A stretch of 63,998 nt of DNA, the filler included, from Dirinaria sp. TL-2023a (taxonomy: Eukaryota): the NCBI GenBank assembly GCA_051941275.1. It is 9 parts of 9 records of this genome, joined end to end, with 100 filler letters (N's around TTAATTAATTAA, not from the genome) between each part and the next. Parts side by side here need not be neighbours in the genome. Positions count along the whole stretch, not along the records: positions 14,341 to 21,391 come from JAVEBF010001373.1; 8 more parts are not named here. One strand, written 5' to 3'. The notes below the pieces were generated by a model. That model did no database searches and was not told where the DNA came from. It saw nothing but the letters and a program-made list of their open reading frames with translations. Shown in pieces: positions 7,176 through 56,596 of this stretch; position 1 is the stretch's first letter, and each line of letters opens with the position of its first letter. Position numbers and translations under genes: made by a program.

Positions 7176-7254
7176 AACTCTGCATTAGTAGCCCATGTCC
7201 TTTGTGGAATCTGAGGGTGTAGCAATTCGAGTATCGGCTGGCCCCTTTCTTTTG
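7176..7254 (+). ncRNA. Putative Pol III small structured RNA, family A copy 0 (5'-truncated by contig end)
   Basis: AACTCTGCATTAGTAGCCCATGTCCTTTGTGGAATCTGAGGGTGTAGCAATT is identical to the reverse complement of the 12488-12593 copy; followed by T-rich terminator and B box GGTTCAATCC at 7276-7285. Confidence 0.7.
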
Positions 7255-8515
7255 CCTTTTGCGGAAGTGGTCCAGGGTTCAATCCCCACAGAGTTCAATT
7301 CAAATTTTTCACCCCTTTTTCACTTCTTGCTTTCTAAATTATTTTTCGACCTAAAGTTTTCTTTTTTTCCTTTGTCACTTTCGTATCCAAAACTTCAGCC
7401 ATCCCATCGCGTGTCTCTAAAACCAAGAACCGAAGGGGGGAAAAGCAAATCTATACCGCGTACAACCAACCCCTTTCATCCATCCCCACATGACCTTTCC
7501 CACTTTCTATTTTTCTATTAAGGGAGATATGGGATCCTACTGCCGCTGCAACACCTACTCTACTGGCATTCCAGCGCTGCTCACTACTAATTCTCACCTG
7601 GTAATGCATCCGATCCCTATTTCAGTATCTTCGTTTCTATGTCTCTGGCACAATGCGAGTTTTCTAGCAAGAATGGTTTCATGGAGTGATGAGGGACCGA
7701 TCTACCTTGAAAGTGATGCGGTTCAGCAGACTAGTTCTCAAAAGCTGAATGTGACATAAGAAATATCAGAGAGGCATTGATAAATTGACATTGGTAGTTA
7801 GAGGGGAAGGGGATGGGGGGTAATGGGTGGCAGCAAATTGGAGGTGGTTTGGCAGCAAAATATGATGTTGTTGCGTTACTGGGACCCTCAATTTCTTGCT
7901 ACCACCACCAGTGGATAGTAAAAAGGGAATATGAATTCGAGAAAGCAGAGGATGGGCACGGAAAAAGATAGTTGTACGCAGCATGACGCTCCACCCCCCA
8001 CCGTGTGCTCAGACAGATGGCATTAATGGGCTCTCTGTGTCGCAGCTCCGCTATGAGTTTGGGGTGGGTGAGACGTGAGCATAGAGGATGGATAGACGGA
8101 GTCTGGGATCGGACATGGTGAGATATCGAATAGCAGAGTTCGTGCCAGAGTGGAGTGAAGTAGATTTGATATTGTGAGCCTTAATTGGTCTTAAACTAAG
8201 GCTATGGACTACCGGATAGAGACAAATCAGATCAAATTTGATCTTGTAGAGAAACTTGATTGTAGTTGTGCCGCCGCCTGGGAAACTTGACGTGTCGGAA
8301 GATGATGAAAACCCGCTCGATTGCCAATGAGATCGCGGAAGCAATAGTGATGGAGTGTAGTTGAGTTAGTCTATGCGTCGAGATCTTCAGATAAAAGTAG
8401 TATGGGATGATGATATACACCCTATACGCGTTCTTCTTAGACTTGCATCGCATTTCGCTCGAGCCAAGTCATGAACCCTTCCAATCCCAGGCTGAATATC
8501 TTGTCTTCAAAGATA

Positions 8516-12400: not shown

Positions 12401-12487
12401 GAGTAGATTGTGTTAAGGAACAAGGAAAAAGGAAAAGAAAAAGAAAAAAGTTGACTAACCCGAGAATCGAACACTGAGCAAAAAAAA

Positions 12488-12593
12488 GACGGCTACCGAT
12501 ACCCCAATTGCTACACCCTCAGATTCCACAAAGGACATGGGCTACTAATGCAGAGTTGGAGCTCTGTTCAACTTGAACCAACACGGCTGCCGT
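12488..12593 (-). ncRNA. Putative Pol III small structured RNA, family A copy 1
   Basis: 5' ACGGCAGCCG pairs with 3' CGGTAGCCGT; A-box-like CAGCCGTGTTGG; T8 terminator (A-run 12480-12487); B box GTTCGATTC downstream at 12464-12472; AT-rich TATA-like element about 30 nt upstream. Confidence 0.75.
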
Positions 12594-12779
12594 GAAAACC
12601 TTGGGTAATATTATTTTACATAAATACAAATTTTTTTGTTTTCCATTGGGCGATCCTTCGTTAATTTGCTTCTGACTAACGACCATATCCCTTCTATCTC
12701 TTTACTGTCCTTACTCTATGTTTTTACCAAAAAAAAAGCTCATTTGACCTCTGTCTGAATCGAGCACTGCGCAAAAAAA

Positions 12780-12889
12780 GGGGCAGCCGATACCCCAATT
12801 CCTGCCTCCTCAGATTCCACAAAGAATATAGACTGTACGATGCAGAGTTGGAGCTCTGATCAAATTACATGAACCACCACGGCTATCGT
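12780..12889 (-). ncRNA. Putative Pol III small structured RNA, family A copy 2 (most diverged)
   Basis: 5' GATAGCCG / 3' CGGCTGCC stem; T7 terminator (12773-12779); B-box variant GCTCGATTC at 12757-12765; TATATA at 12911-12917. Confidence 0.75.
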
Positions 12890-13139
12890 AAAATATCTCC
12901 TTCAAATAATTATATATGAATTTACAAATATAGTCTTGATATTTTGTAATAGATAGTTGTATCCTTATCAAGGGACGTCGGGCAGGGATGACTTAGCGAG
13001 GGCAACACAAACAAGATGAATAAATGAAAAACCTTGTATTTTTTGTTTGAAGCAAAATCAGAAAAGAGCTGGCTCCAAAAAAAAAAAAAGGTTAAGGTTG
13101 CTTAACCTCTGTCAGAATCGAACACGGCTCCAAAAAAAA

Positions 13140-13249
13140 GTGGGCGACCGATACCCCAATTGCTACACCCTCAGATTCCACAAAGGACATAGGCTACTAA
13201 TGCAGAGTTGGAGCTCTGTTCAAATAACTTGAACCAACACGGCTACCGT
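13140..13249 (-). ncRNA. Putative Pol III small structured RNA, family A copy 3
   Basis: 5' GGTAGCCG / 3' CGGTCGCC stem; A-box-like TAGCCGTGTTGG; T8 terminator (13132-13139); B box GTTCGATTC at 13115-13123; TTTATATAA at 13271-13279. Confidence 0.75.
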
Positions 13250-13594
13250 GAAAATCTTTGCAATATTATCTTATATAAACACAAAATCTGATTTCTTTTA
13301 CCGAACCGCGAATTTGCACTGTGCTGATCGTATAATCAATTGACGACCTGTCACATCTACAGTATTTTATGTTGTTCTTGCTCTTTGAATTTTGTAACTC
13401 TGTATACTAACCACCAAGCGAAGCTGCCTGAATGGCTCTTCCTATCTTCAGCACGTCGATGCAATAATTCAAGTATAGAATCTAGTCCTACCCAAAACCA
13501 TGTTCTCGACTCTATTTGATAATAAGTGCTTAGGTCCAAGCATAAGGACTTCAAAATCAACGTTTCTCAACAAGATCTATCACGCTCTAGATTA

Positions 13595-14119: not shown

Positions 14120-15992
14120 TGACTTATCTTATGAGATGTTGATGCCGAATACGATCTTGCTTACTGGAAGGGAAAAGGAAATTGTCATACTAAGACTGAG
14201 TCCCAGTGCAAGGCTCTGTATCCTCGCTGGAAAAGCTTCCNNNNNNNNNNNNNNNNNNNNNNNNNNNNNNNNNNNNNNNNNNNNTTAATTAATTAANNNN
14301 NNNNNNNNNNNNNNNNNNNNNNNNNNNNNNNNNNNNNNNNACTGATGAATGGCTGACGTTCTTAAACAGTACATGCTCCCTAGCTCTCTATTTCAGTTTT
14401 AGAAAAATCAAGGTTGTCTACAACAGAATGAGGAAGATGTTTAAAGCACCGAGAGGGTAGTCGAAATAGCTGCTCGCTCTCCCAGACTTAGGATGATAGG
14501 GTTCCGTCACCAAAGACTATTCTTAGTATCGAATATATATCATTCATAACGGCCTCACTGCAGGTCTTTATAATTTGGTCGATCTGACAGGGCTATATGG
14601 TTGCTGATTGGCCTTCATTGCCGATTTGATTCAGATTTGATCCATATGACATTCCTCCGTGTGGGTAGAACAGCACGCTAGTGTTTCAATTTCAGGCTTT
14701 GGGGGCGATTGCTGTATATTCGAGAGCATGTCCCAGTGAATTCGATAGGAAGGTTGTGCTCGTGCCCAGGACTTGAGATTTCGGAGGTACATAGCGGTGC
14801 GAGAGGCCTACCAAATCATTCAAAGGATTATATCATGGCGGCACAGGTCCTTGTCAATAGCTGCGAACCTAGTCTAATATACCATGTAGTAGATTTATTC
14901 TTTGCTGAAAATAATCCGGTATAAATTCTCGTGGGCGAGACGCTCAATATCCTGATGCTTTGTCACACTCTCATGAATTCCATTGTCGATGAACAAAGAA
15001 TCTTATTCTCAATCTCAGCGCTCCTGTCCGAATCTTCTTTCAAAATGGCTGCATCAGGTTTTCTTTGTCATGGATACTTAAACGCCGATCTTGCTTCAAC
15101 AAATGCTGTAAAAACATTTTCAACTTCTAGACTCAGCACGGACTGAGAAACCCATCATCATGTTCCACTCATATTCTAAATACTGCCTGCTGTCGATTGC
15201 TAGATTGAAAAATTGCTGTCAAGACGTCTTACTGTTTTTGTAATATTCGATCGCTCAGCATACGTCTCGCATTAACGGCTCGTTCGGTATTCTCGAATGT
15301 AAGGCCCGCCCTTGTTCAAGCAGATGTGTTGCCCCATAGTGTTGTGCCTAGAGTGTTGCTTGGCACTAGCGTGGTTGCCTCGGTGAGTTCTACATATGTA
15401 GAACTCACACAGATACATTCATAGACTTTTGACAATGGCATGCTTCATGTATGCTAGCAAGTGCATTGCTCAGTGCTTCAACAGCCCTTTGTTCAAGCAA
15501 GACATGGAAACCATCGATCCTTTTGAGGTTTGTTTTCCCATCTCTCGTTCTCCCTATCCGACGTTCTCTTTGCGCTTTGGTCACCCTCCAACTATGATTT
15601 CACTGCATTGTCCCTGTCATCATGCTTGCTAATGCTGCAACCATGGAGGTCAGTATGAGGTCCCTATATGCATTTAGACTATGCTTACAGCTAAATTTTC
15701 ATTCCTGAAGGGGTTGTCAAATCAGGCGTTTTCCATACTTGAGGCGCCCGATCTGGCAAATCCGACAAGGAATCCGGAGAACATTATCTTCAAGCCGGAA
15801 ATGTAAGATGGTGTTTATGGTGCCTGAAAAATGAGTAGGTAAATTCGAGGTTGAGAGCTTAGAAAATTAAATGAAAGAAGTCTACAATGGAGAAAGATAG
15901 ATAAGGGGGCATAGACAGCTTCATGTAGGCAATGATGAGCCTTGCAGAAAATATTTCGCTGTTCTTGGCCATCTGTTCTGGGCTCTCGCCTA

Positions 15993-16846
15993 CTATGCAT
16001 GATAGAAACTGCATGCACGCGCAACTAATCTATGTCATTTCGGGTAACCGGAGCATTGAGCTTTGATCGCTATTGTCGAGGAATCAGCTAGGAAATTCTG
16101 TATATGCGAGGAGAAGACTCACACGAAGCGAAGTAATTATAATTCTCTGCGTTCTGAAGCTGCTCAGCTTCTGGTAAAAGAATACAGTCTCGAAGATCAT
16201 AGCTCTCTGGTCGATCCAAAGACTCGAAGTGCAGGTATTTGTCCATCAGCTCATGGATCATGGTCCCATACTGCGTAAGGCTGAGTGTATCATCCGAGTT
16301 CCTCAGAATGGCATTCCGCCGGAACAAAGGACAGCGGGAGGGCGCGGGGGTCCGGGAGATTTTATCGAAGAAGGATGGAGGCAGATATATATTGGGAGAA
16401 CCGAATTCGTTGAATGCTACCGCGCGTGGTTGAGTGCTAATCATGAAGTTATATATTGGAGCCGTAAGCCGGTGTCCGGGTTCGACGCAAACGAACATGA
16501 TCTGTACTTGCTGTCCGTCAACCATGATGCTTGTCGCATTCGAGAGTCGAGCAAAGTTCGCGGTCACTGCAGGAATAGCCTCGTCGGATGTAAAGAGAGA
16601 CTTGAAGCCGTGCGACGAGTTAGTACCCGTATTGGCTTCGGAGATGATTACTGGAAGATCGCGTCCGATCTCTTGTAGCAATGAGATCAGTTGGTCTGCT
16701 TTTCCGCCTGAAATATCTTTGCTACACCGAGCGATGAGATAATTTCCATTGTTTGTGACATCGTCACCCCACGGATTTTGAGCCAGAGAGAGCTGAGCTA
16801 CAGTGCATGCAATCAGTACGGTGCGTACTCGTACATGGAACCACAT
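15993..16846 (-). CDS. Secreted deuterolysin/M35 (aspzincin)-like protein with altered zinc motif
   Basis: Signal peptide from ATG 16846 (MWFHVRVRTVLIACTVAQLSLA); TMIHELMD in the HEXXH position; NAENYNYFAS resembles the M35 NADSY-type motif; likely 3' intron (GTGAGT about 16121 to TAG about 16025) and short final exon. Confidence 0.6.
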
Positions 16847-19171
16847 GGCCAAGGGGATCGTAATCATCTGAGCAGTCCGAGCCCATGGGTATTCGAGCTG
16901 AGTTTCAAGGTGGTGCTTGTCCGAGTGTTCCAGAACAAATTGGACCGCGCGAAAAATATCATGCACGGGCTTTCTTAAAAAAAGCATTGAATAACAGTGC
17001 TTCGAATTGTCGGGTAACTCATCAGCGCAAATGTCAAGAAACGCGAAACACGGTGCGCGGGTAAAAATGGCTTTGCGACACCCACGAAGCTATCCAGCGC
17101 TACTCACCGCCCGAAATTTTTTACTCAGAAGATGGATAGCAAGAGCCTCACGTCAAATGAGGCAAAGATGAACTCTCACAAATAGCGGCAAGAGGTGATG
17201 AATAACTTAAAGCCTGCGTTCGATTGCGGTAACCAGAAGCTCTGAGAAATATGAGACCCGCCGAATAGCTCAGGGAAAAGCTTCAGACTCCGATTGAACT
17301 AGAAGGGTTGAAGATCGGCAGACTTTTCGTAGAGATTATGGGAGGCACCGTCAAGTCTTCATAACGACTGTCAACCCTCTTCATCTTAACTAATCCAGCT
17401 CATTCAATCATCCGCTTTCCTTGAGAATCTACTTCTTAGCCGAGTTGGCATTTTGGTAATTCGGTAGAGGTTGGATCTGACAACCTATCCGCTAATATTG
17501 AATATTGAAACTTGGTCGCGTGAGGGGCTCTTCGGAAGCGATGAGGATGATATCTGCGCTGAGGCTTGAGACGAGAGTGTTTGAGTCTTCCGTAGTGCGT
17601 GAGAGGAGACCATTTAGCTGACTGTGGGACTTGCATTGGAATAGTCGCAGGTGCAATGTAGAAACGGCGAATTGTCAGGTCTTTCTGACCAACTTCGAAC
17701 AACGTGCATCTTTGCATATTGTTGTAATAGAATGCCAATTCTAAGTCTTGAACAGCACGAAACTTGGACGAAAGACGGAATTCAAATCAACAAAATCTCG
17801 CACATTGGAGACAAATATGATCTGCTTTCCTGTGCCGAGATGTTAGCGAGGAAAGTATAGACGGCATATCCTGTCAGAAGCAACTGTTCGGAAAGAATTC
17901 AGCGGTTGCAGAAAGATTGTGAAATAATTTCCAGTGGTACATGAGATATTTGGAAATCTATCGTACTAAAACAGCGATAATAAGCCCATCATCTGCTCCT
18001 ATACTGGCAGCGAATCTAGCCCTGGCGACTAATCACGAAATAACTCCGCAATAGGCAATGGTAAGGTTAGAAACCACCACAACAATCATGTTGGGTCGGC
18101 GGTTGTCCTTTGCATGCGCTTTGTAATATTGAACACCTGCCGGGGTAAGAGGGGACGACTTCTCTGTATATTGTTAATCAGAAGTGTTCGTCGAATTTTG
18201 TTGACTGCATTTGGAACCGAGCGATGTCGTGCTCAAGCATAGAGCGAGAAGCCTTCTTTGATCAATAGTGACCACCAATGTCAAGCTCCTCAAGAGATTT
18301 TGAAACTTCTCCTCACGACGCCTCTGGAGGCGAGAAGGGCAAGTGACAGTAACAGAACAATGGCGATTCTGCTGGACGCTGGGCATCAGGTGCAATGGTT
18401 ACAGTCCTCACTAACGACAACAAATCGATGTGCTATATTGCACGAGTCTCAGCGAACGATACCGGAACCGTCGTTCGTTGACTAGTCTTGACCTTAGCCT
18501 TGTACTTTCTGCCTGGTGTAGAAGTATCGAGCTTGCTAATTATGAGAGGTTGTGCTGCGTGTTTTCCGACTAGTGCTGCTGGGCCACCCCCAGCGGAAGG
18601 CAAGCGCTTGGAAGCTGGTACGGAGGTACTGTACATAGGCTGATCATATATCTGGCCACGCACCAAGGCCGCAGTGAGCGGCACATGCTACATGCAGATG
18701 GATGTATGTCTGATCCTTCCTACATATCGGTATCCGTCTTGGAAACCCCTCACACCCTTTTTTCAATCCTTTCGGAGAGAGAAGCGCAGATCGTTGACTC
18801 GAAGCAGACATTTTGTGGTGCAGGATGCTCATGGAGGTGTGTGCGTGGACTGTTTTATCATCCGTTTGGGTACATGATTTGCAGTGCTAAGCTGCCAGGT
18901 CAACAAGGGGAAAGCCGTTAGGAGGGGCGTCGTCAAGTGCCTGCACCTGCCTTATAATCATTCTCGAAGTGAAAAGCTCGAAAGATTTCGCTACCTTACC
19001 TTAAGTGACGCAACTTTGTTTGACATAATCTTGTTAAATACTGCAGTAATACAGTACGGAGCGACTTTGCTCTTCCACCACCCTATCTCTGCAGATTTCC
19101 CTAAAATGTCTCTTGATATTTAGAGATTGTTCTTGCATCTTCCGTTAGCTATAGATTATCTGGTCTGCGCC

Positions 19172-20269
19172 ATGGAGCGCGAGAAAACAGCCGAAGATCA
19201 ATTGGGAGTAGCATCGGCCCCTTCAGGAGTTCTCCTCGTTGGAAGTGTCCCACTCGCCTCGACCCAGGATGTCTTCGTCAAATTGTGCTCTGCTCTGCCT
19301 CAACGCCTCCATACAATTCCAGACGGCGAAACTGGGGTGCGGTACAACTATATCGGTTGGCAGCTTGGTTGTTTTCCGCGCGAAACCATTCACACATTTC
19401 TCGGGGGTGTCGAGAGGTCACAGAAGGATTTAGATCTCTATACAATCGATTCAATTCAGCCCACGAGATACGACGAAATGGCCATATCCTCTTACGGTAT
19501 CTTCACCAGAATGCGTAACGAAGGCATTATACCATCGGACGTGCGCTTCCAAGTTTCCCTTCCTACGCCCTTTAATTCAATTCAGGGACACGTTAGGCCT
19601 GAGTTCCATCGTCAATTGGAGCCACTCTATGAGAAGCGATTTGAAGAGTCTCTCAGACGTATTTTTGAAGCAATTCCTGCGAGGGATCTGGCTATTCAAT
19701 GGGATCTGACATTTGACGTGATTGCGTTGGAATACGATCGAGGCGGAACGGAGGACCCACGGTTCAAGCCCCATTTCTCGCCCATTCAACGGGGAATCCT
19801 TGATCGCATATCTAGTTTCTGTGCGATGATCCCTGCAGAAGTCATGTTGGCGTTCCACTTGTGCTATGGAGATCTTCGCCACAAGCATTTCGTGGAGCCT
19901 GCCGATACGACTCTGCTTGTAGACCTGGCCAACAGCATCACACAGGAAATTGGAAATATGCACCCTATAGAATGGTTTCATATGCCCGTACCCAAAAGCA
20001 GAATCGATAACTCGTACTTTCAACCTTTGACTGGACTCGATCTTCGCGGTGCCCGCTTGTATCTCTGTTTAGTTCATGCGAATGACGAAGAAGGCACAAG
20101 GAACAGGATCCGAACAGTACAGAAGATATATACACGGCCTTTTGGCGTAGCCACAGAGTGCGGCATGGGGAGAACACCCCAGGCCGAGTTAGACAGTATA
20201 CTTCAGATATGCAAGGACGTGACGGTGCCAAAGAATGCGTCCATGTTGCAGACAGCAGGGATTCAATAG
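19172..20269 (+). CDS. UROD/MetE-like superfamily protein (cobalamin-independent methionine synthase catalytic-domain-like)
   Basis: Intronless ORF; VLLVGSVPL, PDGETG, RFQVSLPTP, LAIQWD, HLCYGD (H-x-C) and C-terminal ECGMGR motifs. Confidence 0.8.
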   Translation: MEREKTAEDQLGVASAPSGVLLVGSVPLASTQDVFVKLCSALPQRLHTIPDGETGVRYNYIGWQLGCFPRETIHTFLGGVERSQKDLDLYTIDSIQPTRYDEMAISSYGIFTRMRNEGIIPSDVRFQVSLPTPFNSIQGHVRPEFHRQLEPLYEKRFEESLRRIFEAIPARDLAIQWDLTFDVIALEYDRGGTEDPRFKPHFSPIQRGILDRISSFCAMIPAEVMLAFHLCYGDLRHKHFVEPADTTLLVDLANSITQEIGNMHPIEWFHMPVPKSRIDNSYFQPLTGLDLRGARLYLCLVHANDEEGTRNRIRTVQKIYTRPFGVATECGMGRTPQAELDSILQICKDVTVPKNASMLQTAGIQ

Positions 20270-21035
20270 CTCTCTTCGAGCTTGACCGAGGGAAAGTTCT
20301 CTGTTAGTATGTCACATACTTGAGCCAGCTGTCTGATCTAAACGTCGTGATCTAGAGTGCCGTGGTTCGAACCGACTAACATTTCTCATGGAAGCTGGTA
20401 ATTGTATTCACTGTATGTTACCCAGATGACACCAGCTGCTGTATCGATGGAACTGGAAGCCATGTGAGGCGTCAGTATGGCCGCGTGCCATCCTTCATCG
20501 CTCCGAACTCTTCCAATCTTTCCCGGGAAGCCTCACAGATGGATCAAATCCTTCATGGCTCCCTTCCGCCCAGCTCTGGCCCATTGTCTACAGAACTGCC
20601 ACACGGCGCAAACTTTCGCCCTTACCAATAGCAAAGACCGATATGAGCCAACCGTGGGGCGATATACAGTAGAGGTGATAAACCATACTGAGAAGTTCTC
20701 GCTCACGCGATCGGCGCGGGTATGCTGGCAGAGCGCCTAGAGATGCGTTTTGAGTGGTCTCAAGGGACGCTTTAGTGTTCACACAGCCGCTGCTTTTAGT
20801 GGCCCTGGCTGCGCTAGCTAGGGACTTATGGCGCAGGTACGAGTACCTACTTTAGCCTTGATATATCACTGCAAGCTCTTGCTCTTATTTATTCTACTTT
20901 AATTTAGCTTAGCTTAAAGTATGTATGCAAATCCCTGTCTTCCCCGTCTGTAGACTATGAAGAATCCGAAAAAAAAAAAAGGAAGAGAAAGAGAGGATAG
21001 TGGTGAGATTCGAACGTACGACCTGGAGCCAAAAA

Positions 21036-21128
21036 GGAATCCGACTGCACATCAGCGCCAGCACTCCAGGCTAGCGGGCCTTATCCCGTGCTACTTGAAG
21101 CAGCCCTCTGCACCATCATCGGAATTCC
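21036..21128 (-). ncRNA. Putative Pol III small structured RNA, family B
   Basis: 5' GGAATTCCGA pairs with 3' TCGGATTCC; three internal hairpins; T5 terminator (21031-21035); downstream B box GTTCGAATC (21007-21015); TATATAA at 21158-21164. Confidence 0.65.
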
Positions 21129-21491
21129 TTGAAAAGCAATACCCAATTAAAAATTACTTATATATTTTGTGTTTCTCTAACCCTAGAGGTAGGATCAAAT
21201 ATGCAGAATCGGAAAACCAACAATTGCGCCAAGCTGGCTCGGCGCAGCGGAACTGCACATCACCTACCTTAATTTTCGTGCCTCGGCTCAAAACTTCCGC
21301 CCTCAAAAAACCTCCCCATTCATCACATGAATCCGCGTTTCCAGCATCAACCTCCCCTCTCCCCCGTCTCTTCTCTCAAAAAACCTCCCACNNNNNNNNN
21401 NNNNNNNNNNNNNNNNNNNNNNNNNNNNNNNNNNNTTAATTAATTAANNNNNNNNNNNNNNNNNNNNNNNNNNNNNNNNNNNNNNNNNNNN

Positions 21492-54939: not shown

Positions 54940-56596
54940 TACCCTTCTTGGCGACACATTAGATGATGGTTGCTCTTGTCCGGGATACACACCTCTGGAG
55001 GAGTGTTTCACCAAATTTTCGGCTTCTGGGATCTGTTTCGGCATGCTTCTGTTTTTTTCATTTCTGATTTTTTGCAGCGAGGTGGAATCGCTCCGGCAGT
55101 ATAAGCGAAGATTATCAGGTTGGTGGGGGGCTTATGTGTCTTGATGTTAGACTACTGTGTAGGCGCCATTTTTGGTAGGCACCTTGCGAAAACTACAGTA
55201 TTCTCCGTGCAAAATCCATCGGATACCAAAAAAAAAAAAAAAAGAGTTGTATGATTGTGTGATAAAATCGTAGCATTTCGAATTCCACAGCATGCTTTGA
55301 TATCCTCTCCACTCTTATGTCTATCACAAGGCGTTCCACTGCTTTATTCCAAAGTAGCAAAAACACACCTCTTCTCACCTGAGTCGGTCGCTTTATGTAG
55401 CGAAAATACTTTGTCACACAGTACGAGTACCTCCCATATCCGCATATAGCAGAAAGAGAACCCTAGACTACATGGCCTTACGACACCTCACATCGAGAAC
55501 AGTGAGCATCACACTTTACCATATCCCCCTTCACCAGTAATACCAATCACCGGAACGGTACCCTCCTCTACAATTCCCCAGCTCCCCACCATAATTCTCC
55601 CATACAGAAGAAACTATATCAGCAGCTAAGCTATATCATCCACTCAAAGCTAGCTCTGAAAACAAACGCCGGATATCTTCTCCTCTATTCCCAAAACCCG
55701 AATTCCTTCCCTCTGCGTTCTTTACATTGCTGCGAACAAATCGTTTGCTACTTCGTATACGACAAGTTATGGTCGCCTACCAATCTAAAGCTGGAGGGTA
55801 TCTGAGATAGAGGGTGAAAATTTTTTGGTGCTTGATGACTCTTCTTGAGCGTGTGGGAAGGGAGGTTTGATACTGTTGTCATACTTATCATGCCGGTTTG
55901 AATCGTAGAAAATCAAGAGTTCAGAATGAGATCTAGGAACTGTAAGGGTTGATTGATGCCATGGCAGTTTTGACTTTATAATTTTGATATGCGGGAAATG
56001 GCGTTCTTCTGTTCGAATCTTGCGATCCGTGTCGGCTTTTTGGGGAAAGTTAGGATAATTGGCACTGCCGGGCGTTGTGGTAGGTTCCTAACTTCTCTAT
56101 ACAAAGTGTTGCTGTCTTTCTCGAAGTAAAATTATGTACTACCCGTGTCACCCAGAAAGATGTGTACTTTACAATATAGAGAAGCATATCAAAAGGGCGG
56201 GTTGCTTAAGGGCTGGCTAGCGCGAAAAGCGCCAAGACTTAGCTGACGGTGCTCCTACAGGTTGCTTTCGGGTGAGCTAAATACCCCCCAGGTAGTAAAA
56301 TGTACGTCTAAGTGGTGGTGATAGGGGACCCCCCAGGCGACCTTCAGTTAGCCACATTTATGGCGTTGATCGCACTTATGTCGGCCAATAACCCTATCAC
56401 TTGTCTCTCGCCGATGCCAGCGTTGTCAGCCGCGTATGTTGCTGCAGCTGATGATCAGCTAGGCGATGCACTTCTTTGAAATTGGAATGAGCACCTCGAT
56501 CGAAGTCTTTTAAAGCCAAAACAGCAGTAATAGCTTTCAAGAATTGCTCATTTATAGAAGTGAACAACACCATTGAACTAGTATACATAGGCCATC

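Follow-up and report, generated by a model that had tools for sequence, protein, structure and literature searches.

A candidate RNA polymerase III transcription unit with an SNR6-type split promoter and a putative stem-closed small RNA in Dirinaria sp. TL-2023a

To our knowledge, the RNA polymerase III (Pol III) products described in filamentous ascomycetes are few, namely transfer RNAs (tRNAs), 5S, U6, 7SL, RNase P RNA and the precursors of microRNA-like small RNAs (milRNAs) in Neurospora. Here we analyzed a minus-strand locus, named unit B, in a 63,998-base stretch of the genome of Dirinaria sp. TL-2023a (GCA_051941275.1). This stretch, referred to below as the window, consists of nine draft contigs of ~7 kb each, placed longest first and linked by N44-TTAATTAATTAA-N44; any feature that seems to cross a linker between joined contigs is an artefact. 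On balance, the signals read from the sequence favor a Pol III transcription unit with a split promoter of the type found in the U6 gene of Saccharomyces cerevisiae (SNR6), which would produce an orphan stem-closed small RNA of ~93-98 nucleotides (nt). As given in the accessible part of PMC9136082, the TATA box of SNR6 stands at -30, box A lies within the gene, and box B follows outside it, past the terminator and 202 bp from box A; a T7 tract lies between TATA and start. Two further systems are relevant for comparison. According to the available excerpt of PMC3547838, Pol III makes the major milRNAs of Neurospora crassa, and their loci are drawn with TATA-like elements, putative A/B boxes and poly-T. 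For Y RNAs and the related stem-bulge RNAs (sbRNAs), the accessible sections of PMC4726728 state that none had been identified in fungi by 2015, and place the Ro60 site of Y RNA in the lower stem, where a C is bulged out and the opposite strand has a 3-nt bulge, alongside an RUG/CAY motif in the upper stem.

On the minus strand, unit B reads TATATAA, 29 nt, a 93-nt segment, T5, 15 nt, GTTCGAATC, 26 nt and T12. A preliminary description had listed these elements with a spacer of about 30 nt after the TATA motif, and all of its letters proved right, the measured spacer being 29 nt. The TATA-box candidate (TATATAA, 21158-21164), recognized by sequence, is one of only 47 TATAWAW sites on both strands of the window together; its first T precedes the A-box T by 49 nt and the G that opens the closing stem by 36 nt, and the 29-nt spacer between it and the stem contains a T5 tract. 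The 93-nt segment, which opens with GGAATTCC at 21128 and closes with CGGATTCC at 21036, is the predicted RNA body (GGAAUUCC...CGGAUUCC, 21036-21128), its ends being placed by the TATA spacing and by T5. Within it, an A-box-like element, TGGTGCAGAGG (21105-21115, RNA +14 to +24), fits the tRNA-type consensus as we know it, T-R-G-Y-N-N-A-R-N-N-G, at all constrained positions; this pattern has 72 matches in the ~128 kb of both strands. The T5 run at 21031-21035, short and possibly leaky, is the first Pol III terminator candidate. It is followed by a B-box-like element, AGGTCGTACGTTCGAATCTCAC (21003-21024), whose core GTTCGAATC occupies 21007-21015 and lies 100 nt from the A box. As read from the sequence, the context of this element resembles a tRNA variable loop and T-arm whose stem no longer pairs. 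Finally, T12 (20969-20980), 26 nt past the B-box-like element, is a candidate second, fail-safe terminator; only eight runs of T12 or longer are present on both strands of the window.

Compared with SNR6, as far as the accessible part of PMC9136082 describes it, unit B likewise has an upstream TATA element ~30 nt before the start (a predicted start in B), an intragenic box A, a T-run terminator followed by an extragenic box B, and a T tract (T7 in SNR6, T5 in B) that separates TATA from start. The two loci differ in that the predicted RNA of unit B is not U6, the A-to-B distance is 100 nt instead of 202 bp, with box B only 15 nt past the terminator, and a second long T-run stands past the B box. 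With tRNA genes (type 2 promoters), unit B shares an A-box-like element with the pattern of tRNA positions 8-19, a B-box-like element in a T-arm-like context, and pairing of the 5' and 3' ends; in contrast to them, its RNA has neither cloverleaf nor T-arm, its box B lies outside the transcript, and both ARAGORN and the Rfam tRNA model are negative; the preliminary description had also noted the lack of a T-psi-C loop. The milRNA loci of N. crassa, as drawn in the excerpt of PMC3547838, resemble unit B in being intergenic units of a Pezizomycotina member (Pol III being predicted in B) with TATA-like elements, A/B boxes and poly-T, whereas unit B is no simple hairpin.

The promoter/terminator grammar of unit B is far beyond chance. 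We searched the window for the composite T5+ / 8-20 nt / GYTCGAWTC / 15-45 nt / T6+, which is present at three loci (unit B and two units of a second family, here called family A), whereas none of 100 dinucleotide shuffles contains it. The gene grammar of Pol III type that the preliminary description had proposed is real. In a stricter test, the real T-run distribution of the window served as background. Flanking T-runs of the composite type occur at only 116 of 124,532 positions, a joint probability of ~9e-4 per position, and three of the seven B-box-like 9-mers sit there (binomial 2.8e-8). As the two family A units are paralogues, the three composite loci count as two independent families; a third family A unit falls outside the composite only because its second T-run begins 14 nt past the box and not 15. 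Upstream, TATAWAW plus an A-box match at compatible spacing is found at only 50 of 122,292 positions, unit B among them (at most 4e-4 per position).

Family A lies on another contig (7176-14240) than unit B (14341-21391), as the preliminary description had pointed out. It comprises three tandem units at 12479-13280 on the minus strand, each with a TATA motif, an RNA of ~108 nt, T7-8, GYTCGATTC about 10 nt past this run, and a second T-run. A fourth, partial copy lies in inverted orientation at 7176-7237, where the contig start truncates it; in this copy (7176-7285, plus strand), the T-run is interrupted and a more canonical, more tRNA-like GGTTCAATCC is found at 7276-7285. That the contig breaks inside a family A copy suggests that the family is multi-copy in the genome. 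Family A has no Rfam match. A covariance model built for it recovered the three full copies and the partial one (E values from 1.8e-30 to 3.5e-10), whereas 21036-21128 gave no match up to E 10; unit B is thus not detectably homologous to family A, and the grammar does recur in a sequence-distinct family, as had been claimed. Similarly, blastn of unit B against family A gave short T-run matches only, and unit B was single-copy within the window. The two have in common the TATA motif, a stem-closed RNA, a T-run, a B-box-like element and a second T-run; they differ in that family A is multi-copy and tandem, and in that its predicted RNA body is mainly one long irregular hairpin, accompanied by a short one. 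Among 36 predicted pairs compared across the three paralogues, 24 are invariant, eight show one-sided changes and remain paired, and four are broken in one copy, with no double change; this variation would be compatible with a kept structure, short of proof.

A resemblance between the 5' segments of unit B and family A had also been taken as a hint of a shared A box or protein-binding site. The segments agree at 11 of 14 columns with one gap and two mismatches, and an ungapped pattern search allowing up to two mismatches did not return unit B. TGGTNCA stands at RNA +12 to +14 in both. The shared motif falls on the A box (TGGTNCA) and on the end of the closing stem, so that promoter constraint is the simplest explanation of the likeness, which is no evidence for a common RNA-protein site.

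We then consider the RNA body. Its ends form a closing stem, P1, predicted from the minimum free energy (MFE) structure and pair probabilities, with the 5' strand at nt 1-11 (21118-21128) and the 3' strand at nt 84-93 (21036-21045) directly abutting T5. G1-U5 pair with A89-C93 and C7-U11 with G84-G88, giving ten pairs (nine Watson-Crick and one U-G) at probabilities of 0.47-1.0; the paired ends with one bulge that had been described are therefore found, as 5 bp, a bulged U6 and 5 bp. In the MFE structure, P1 leads through a 4x1 internal loop to a second helix, whose 5' strand (21105-21113) consists of P2 nt 16-20 (GUGCA), GA at nt 21-22 and paired nt 23-24, and whose 3' strand, CUGAUGUGC (nt 74-82, 21047-21055), contains CUGA. 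P2 joins G16-A20 with U78-C82 (GUGCA/UGUGC, two G-U pairs; probabilities 0.61-0.78); beyond it, a 2x2 internal loop with GA facing GA is followed by the two further pairs. The distal domain (21057-21104) is predicted, again from MFE and pair probabilities, as three adjacent hairpins at nt 25-39, 41-54 and 54-72. These hairpins had been written out in the preliminary description and are present as such in the MFE structure, with pair probabilities of ~0.40 (GCUGC/GUAGC), ~0.9 (GGG/CCC) and 0.46 (GCUAGC/GCUGGC). The cloverleaf-like multibranch fold into which they had been assembled fared worse: it is a single MFE structure of low frequency (0.02) and folds no better than shuffles (z = -1.34).

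Inside the RNA, UGAUGGUGCAG (nt 11-21) and UGAUGUGCAG (nt 75-84) form a near-direct repeat, whose UGCA cores also form P2; it may be a protein site present twice, or mere chance. In addition, CCUGGAG in the loop of hairpin 3 (21065-21071) and CUCCAGG, which lies in the trailer just past T5 (21022-21028), are exact complements, so that a read-through transcript could refold, although the extended fold is not significant (z = -0.65). A structured trailer in a transcript extended to T12 was considered and finds no support in this value.

Unit B belongs to no known RNA family and carries no coding signal in the searches made. Rfam 15, a check that the preliminary description had named, gave no match at gathering thresholds anywhere in the window, and at 20800-21350 only five matches appeared, at E 2.1-9.8 and 9-14 bits against gathering scores of 40-55. 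U6 had no Rfam match at the gathering threshold in the window and none at E <= 10 in 20800-21350. ARAGORN reported no tRNA in the window. With its threshold set to 90 %, three regions yielded no gene, and at 80 %, introns being allowed, it gave only overlapping sub-threshold models on opposite strands, which we regard as noise. A tRNA-Sec, an idea raised by the loop CUUCAAG with UCA, was ruled out by the lack of a T-arm, of a 6-bp D stem and of ARAGORN/Rfam support. A miniature inverted-repeat transposable element, with the closing stem as terminal inverted repeats, was also rejected, since the flanks show no target-site duplication and the window contains no further copy. The plus-strand open frame at 20954-21391 (146 codons) is the sole frame overlapping unit B; its homologue search returned 15 candidates, none at E <= 0.01, and the coding reading was dropped. 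Searches for relatives were likewise negative. A metagenome scan for the two repeated RNA motifs at a gap of 42-72 nt gave two loci in bacterial-looking coding DNA that share only the query motifs, and a 20-mer across the stem and A box gave, among prokaryotic genome contigs, eight loci in bacterial metagenome-assembled genomes with only the 20-21-mer matching, which are chance matches. A word search of the literature, a weak test that is blind to sequence, found no such RNA described for lichen fungi or Pezizomycotina, and the accessible part of PMC2377427, on Aspergillus fumigatus small RNAs, contains no mention of polymerase III, TATA, T-stretch or B-box.

The elements, their order and spacing and their non-random co-occurrence are established, as is the fact that an unrelated family of this genome repeats the grammar. 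From these signals, we infer factor binding, start and end points and the stability of the RNA, and also that the RNA itself, not the act of transcription, is the product under selection. In the model that we propose, TFIIIC would contact the A-box-like element within the gene (RNA +14) and the B-box-like element outside it, 15 nt past the first T-run; together with TATATAA, it would position TFIIIB some 30-35 nt ahead of the start. Pol III would initiate at the CAA directly before GGAAUUCC, which places the likely RNA start 1-2 nt upstream of the 93-nt body. Termination would take place at T5, leaving at most five U at the 3' end, with T12 acting as a fail-safe for read-through ahead of the convergent gene. 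Pairing of the transcript ends would give the 10-bp stem and its bulged U, and the oligo-U tail directly behind this stem would be the expected La-binding end; paired termini and oligo-U tail may make the RNA a stable La-type substrate, and the second helix with its tandem G-A/A-G loop would bear the three small hairpins. The B-box element has the look of a former tRNA T-arm; a tRNA gene is therefore the probable source of the promoter, and probably of that of family A as well.

Several points weigh against this interpretation and are collected here. The distance from TATA to the stem is a little longer in unit B (36 nt) than in family A (30 nt). In budding yeast, efficient Pol III termination takes about 6-7 T, compared with which T5 is a short terminator. 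The B-box-like element agrees with the consensus GGTTCGANTCC, as we know it, at 9 of 11 positions, the flanking G and C being missing. Pairing of the two 11-nt ends speaks in favor of the unit, their duplex of -11.5 kcal/mol being stronger than in most dinucleotide shuffles (26 of 2000 are equally good), but this statistic is post hoc, since the ends were defined by the stem. The MFE of the 93-nt RNA is -34.7 kcal/mol (z = -1.34), with 20 of 200 shuffles folding at least as well; z is -0.43 when the folded segment is moved by one base, and for the transcript extended to T12, 50 of 200 shuffles are as good. No homologue of unit B was found in the window, the metagenome scan or the prokaryotic genome contigs. 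Furthermore, the window contains no tRNA, ribosomal RNA, U6, 5S or known small nuclear RNA gene (Rfam 15 at gathering thresholds; ARAGORN), so the organism's own Pol III promoter habits cannot be calibrated from it.

Four other explanations of unit B deserve to be weighed against a stable small RNA. The same Pol III transcription could yield a precursor of microRNA-like small RNAs whose stem is diced, as at the milR loci of N. crassa. The precedent of Pol III-made major milRNAs in another Pezizomycotina member (excerpt of PMC3547838) speaks for it, and so do nt 1-24 and 74-93, which form an irregular stem of ~20 bp (P1, P2, the GA/AG loop and two pairs) of microRNA-arm length, closed at the predicted Pol III start and stop. 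This stem, however, is broken by 4x1 and 2x2 loops, its "loop" is a 49-nt domain of three hairpins unlike simple hairpin precursors, and nothing in the window resembles a target, and we hold such a precursor to be unlikely. It is also conceivable, though not probable, that unit B is what remains of a tRNA-derived Pol III unit now in decay, or that it is a chromatin element bound by TFIIIC, its RNA in either case having no function of its own. The downstream element does read as a tRNA variable loop and T-arm with an unpaired stem, the fold is no better than shuffles, unit B is single-copy in the window, and the partial family A copy at 7176 with its interrupted T-run indicates that such units decay in this genome; against decay, all five signals of unit B are intact and correctly spaced, the closing stem exactly abuts the terminator, and the ARAGORN results described above lend no support to a tRNA remnant.

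A chance assembly of AT-rich motifs (TATA, T-runs) around a fortuitous GTTCGAATC in a Pol II promoter/terminator region would be in keeping with the exact GTTCGAATC found without any T-run context at 56011 (plus strand) and 35255 (minus strand), with the 146 runs of T5 or longer in the window, and with the unremarkable fold statistic. Such an assembly is nevertheless improbable given the joint flank probabilities, the absence of the composite from all 100 shuffles and the same grammar in family A. Budding yeast snR52 is a Pol III-transcribed box C/D small nucleolar RNA (snoRNA), and unit B might be a further one. AUGAUGG (nt 10-16) agrees with the familiar C box RUGAUGA at 6 of 7 positions, CUGA is present at nt 74-77, and the only weak Rfam match on the unit (sR22, 14 bits, E 5.4, against a gathering score of 40) rests on CCGAUGAUG. 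Yet, in the MFE structure, 6-8 unpaired or otherwise paired nucleotides separate the closing stem from CUGA, the bulge is not on the strand where a K-turn would need it, the presumptive guide upstream of CUGA takes part in the pairing of hairpin 3, and every Rfam snoRNA model stays below threshold. Similarly, a fungal Y-RNA-like RNA bound by Ro and La is suggested by a layout close to that of Y RNAs and nematode stem-bulge RNAs in the accessible sections of PMC4726728: a size of ~100 nt (a predicted Pol III transcript in B), lower and upper stems formed by the ends around an internal loop, a bulged pyrimidine, a variable distal loop domain and an oligo-U tail. The details of the Ro60 site as given there are absent: U takes the place of the conserved C in the bulge, the opposite strand lacks the 3-nt bulge, no RUG/CAY motif is present, no Rfam Y_RNA match appears at E <= 10, and the same source reports no fungal Y RNA up to 2015. 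A C/D or Y-like RNA is the least probable of these readings. Taken together, a stable small RNA that forms a ribonucleoprotein (RNP) is most likely; a milRNA precursor, a non-functional relic, a chance assembly and a C/D or Y-like RNA are ranked after it, in this order.

Several repeats were observed in and around unit B. Upstream of the unit, an exact 15-nt direct repeat, GGGAGGTTTTTTGAG, with T6 in each copy, lies at 21302-21316 and 21375-21389 on the minus strand, 73 nt apart. Between the copies, GTGATGA (21326-21320) matches the familiar C-box consensus perfectly, and Rfam gave only weak matches to archaeal small RNAs near the repeat (E 8-10). The 11-mer TGATGTGCAGT of the RNA 3' part (21044-21054) recurs 208 nt upstream (21252-21262). 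Further downstream, 20948-20969 and 21023-21044 form an imperfect 22-nt direct repeat of 73 % identity, and TCGGATTC (minus strand) is common to the region of the RNA 3' end and T5 and to the sequence just past T12, an 8-mer repeat of this kind being expected by chance here. A degenerate paralogue of unit B at 21166-21391 was considered and rejected, as its alignment score of 26 compares with a shuffle mean of 26.9 and 172 of 300 shuffles score as high.

Unit B lies 225 nt from the end of its contig. It is convergent with an open reading frame (ORF) at 19124-20266 (plus strand, 381 codons), in which no Pfam family was found; five ORFs of the contig were scanned, the frame at 20954-21391 excluded, with zero families. 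The nearest language-model clusters of this ORF are Ascomycota "hypothetical protein" entries and MetE C-terminal-like proteins with scores of 0.96, which is a lead only. Fungal ORFs elsewhere in the window include ATG11, an RRN9-like Pol I factor, a syntaxin/SNARE, coatomer epsilon and phosphatidylserine decarboxylase. The closest named relatives of the ATG11 product are all lichen-forming ascomycetes (Heterodermia, 55 %; Pseudocyphellaria, Letharia, Alectoria and Stereocaulon, 48-49 %), with further relatives up to 85 %.

It is possible, and we propose it tentatively, that family A and unit B are the founding members of a hitherto undescribed class of small RNAs in lichen-forming Pezizomycotina, stem-closed and made by Pol III from a compact U6-like split promoter. 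Such RNAs would be stable scaffolds of La-bound RNPs, fungal equivalents of Y or vault-type RNAs, or precursors of small RNAs. In the promoters of this class, a TATA box and an internal A box would be joined by a B box left over from a T-arm and placed directly behind the terminator, with a second terminator as a fail-safe. If this holds, the fungal Pol III transcriptome would grow by two unrelated orphan RNAs that share one compact U6-like promoter, and placing box B outside the gene would be a general way to retain TFIIIC control with an RNA body freed from tRNA-like sequence. The grammar of TATA, A box, T-run, B box and T-run could also serve as a genome-wide search key for further genes. 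Should the RNA of unit B be Y-like, it would bear on the conservation of small stem-loop RNAs in fungi, a question raised in the accessible part of PMC4726728.

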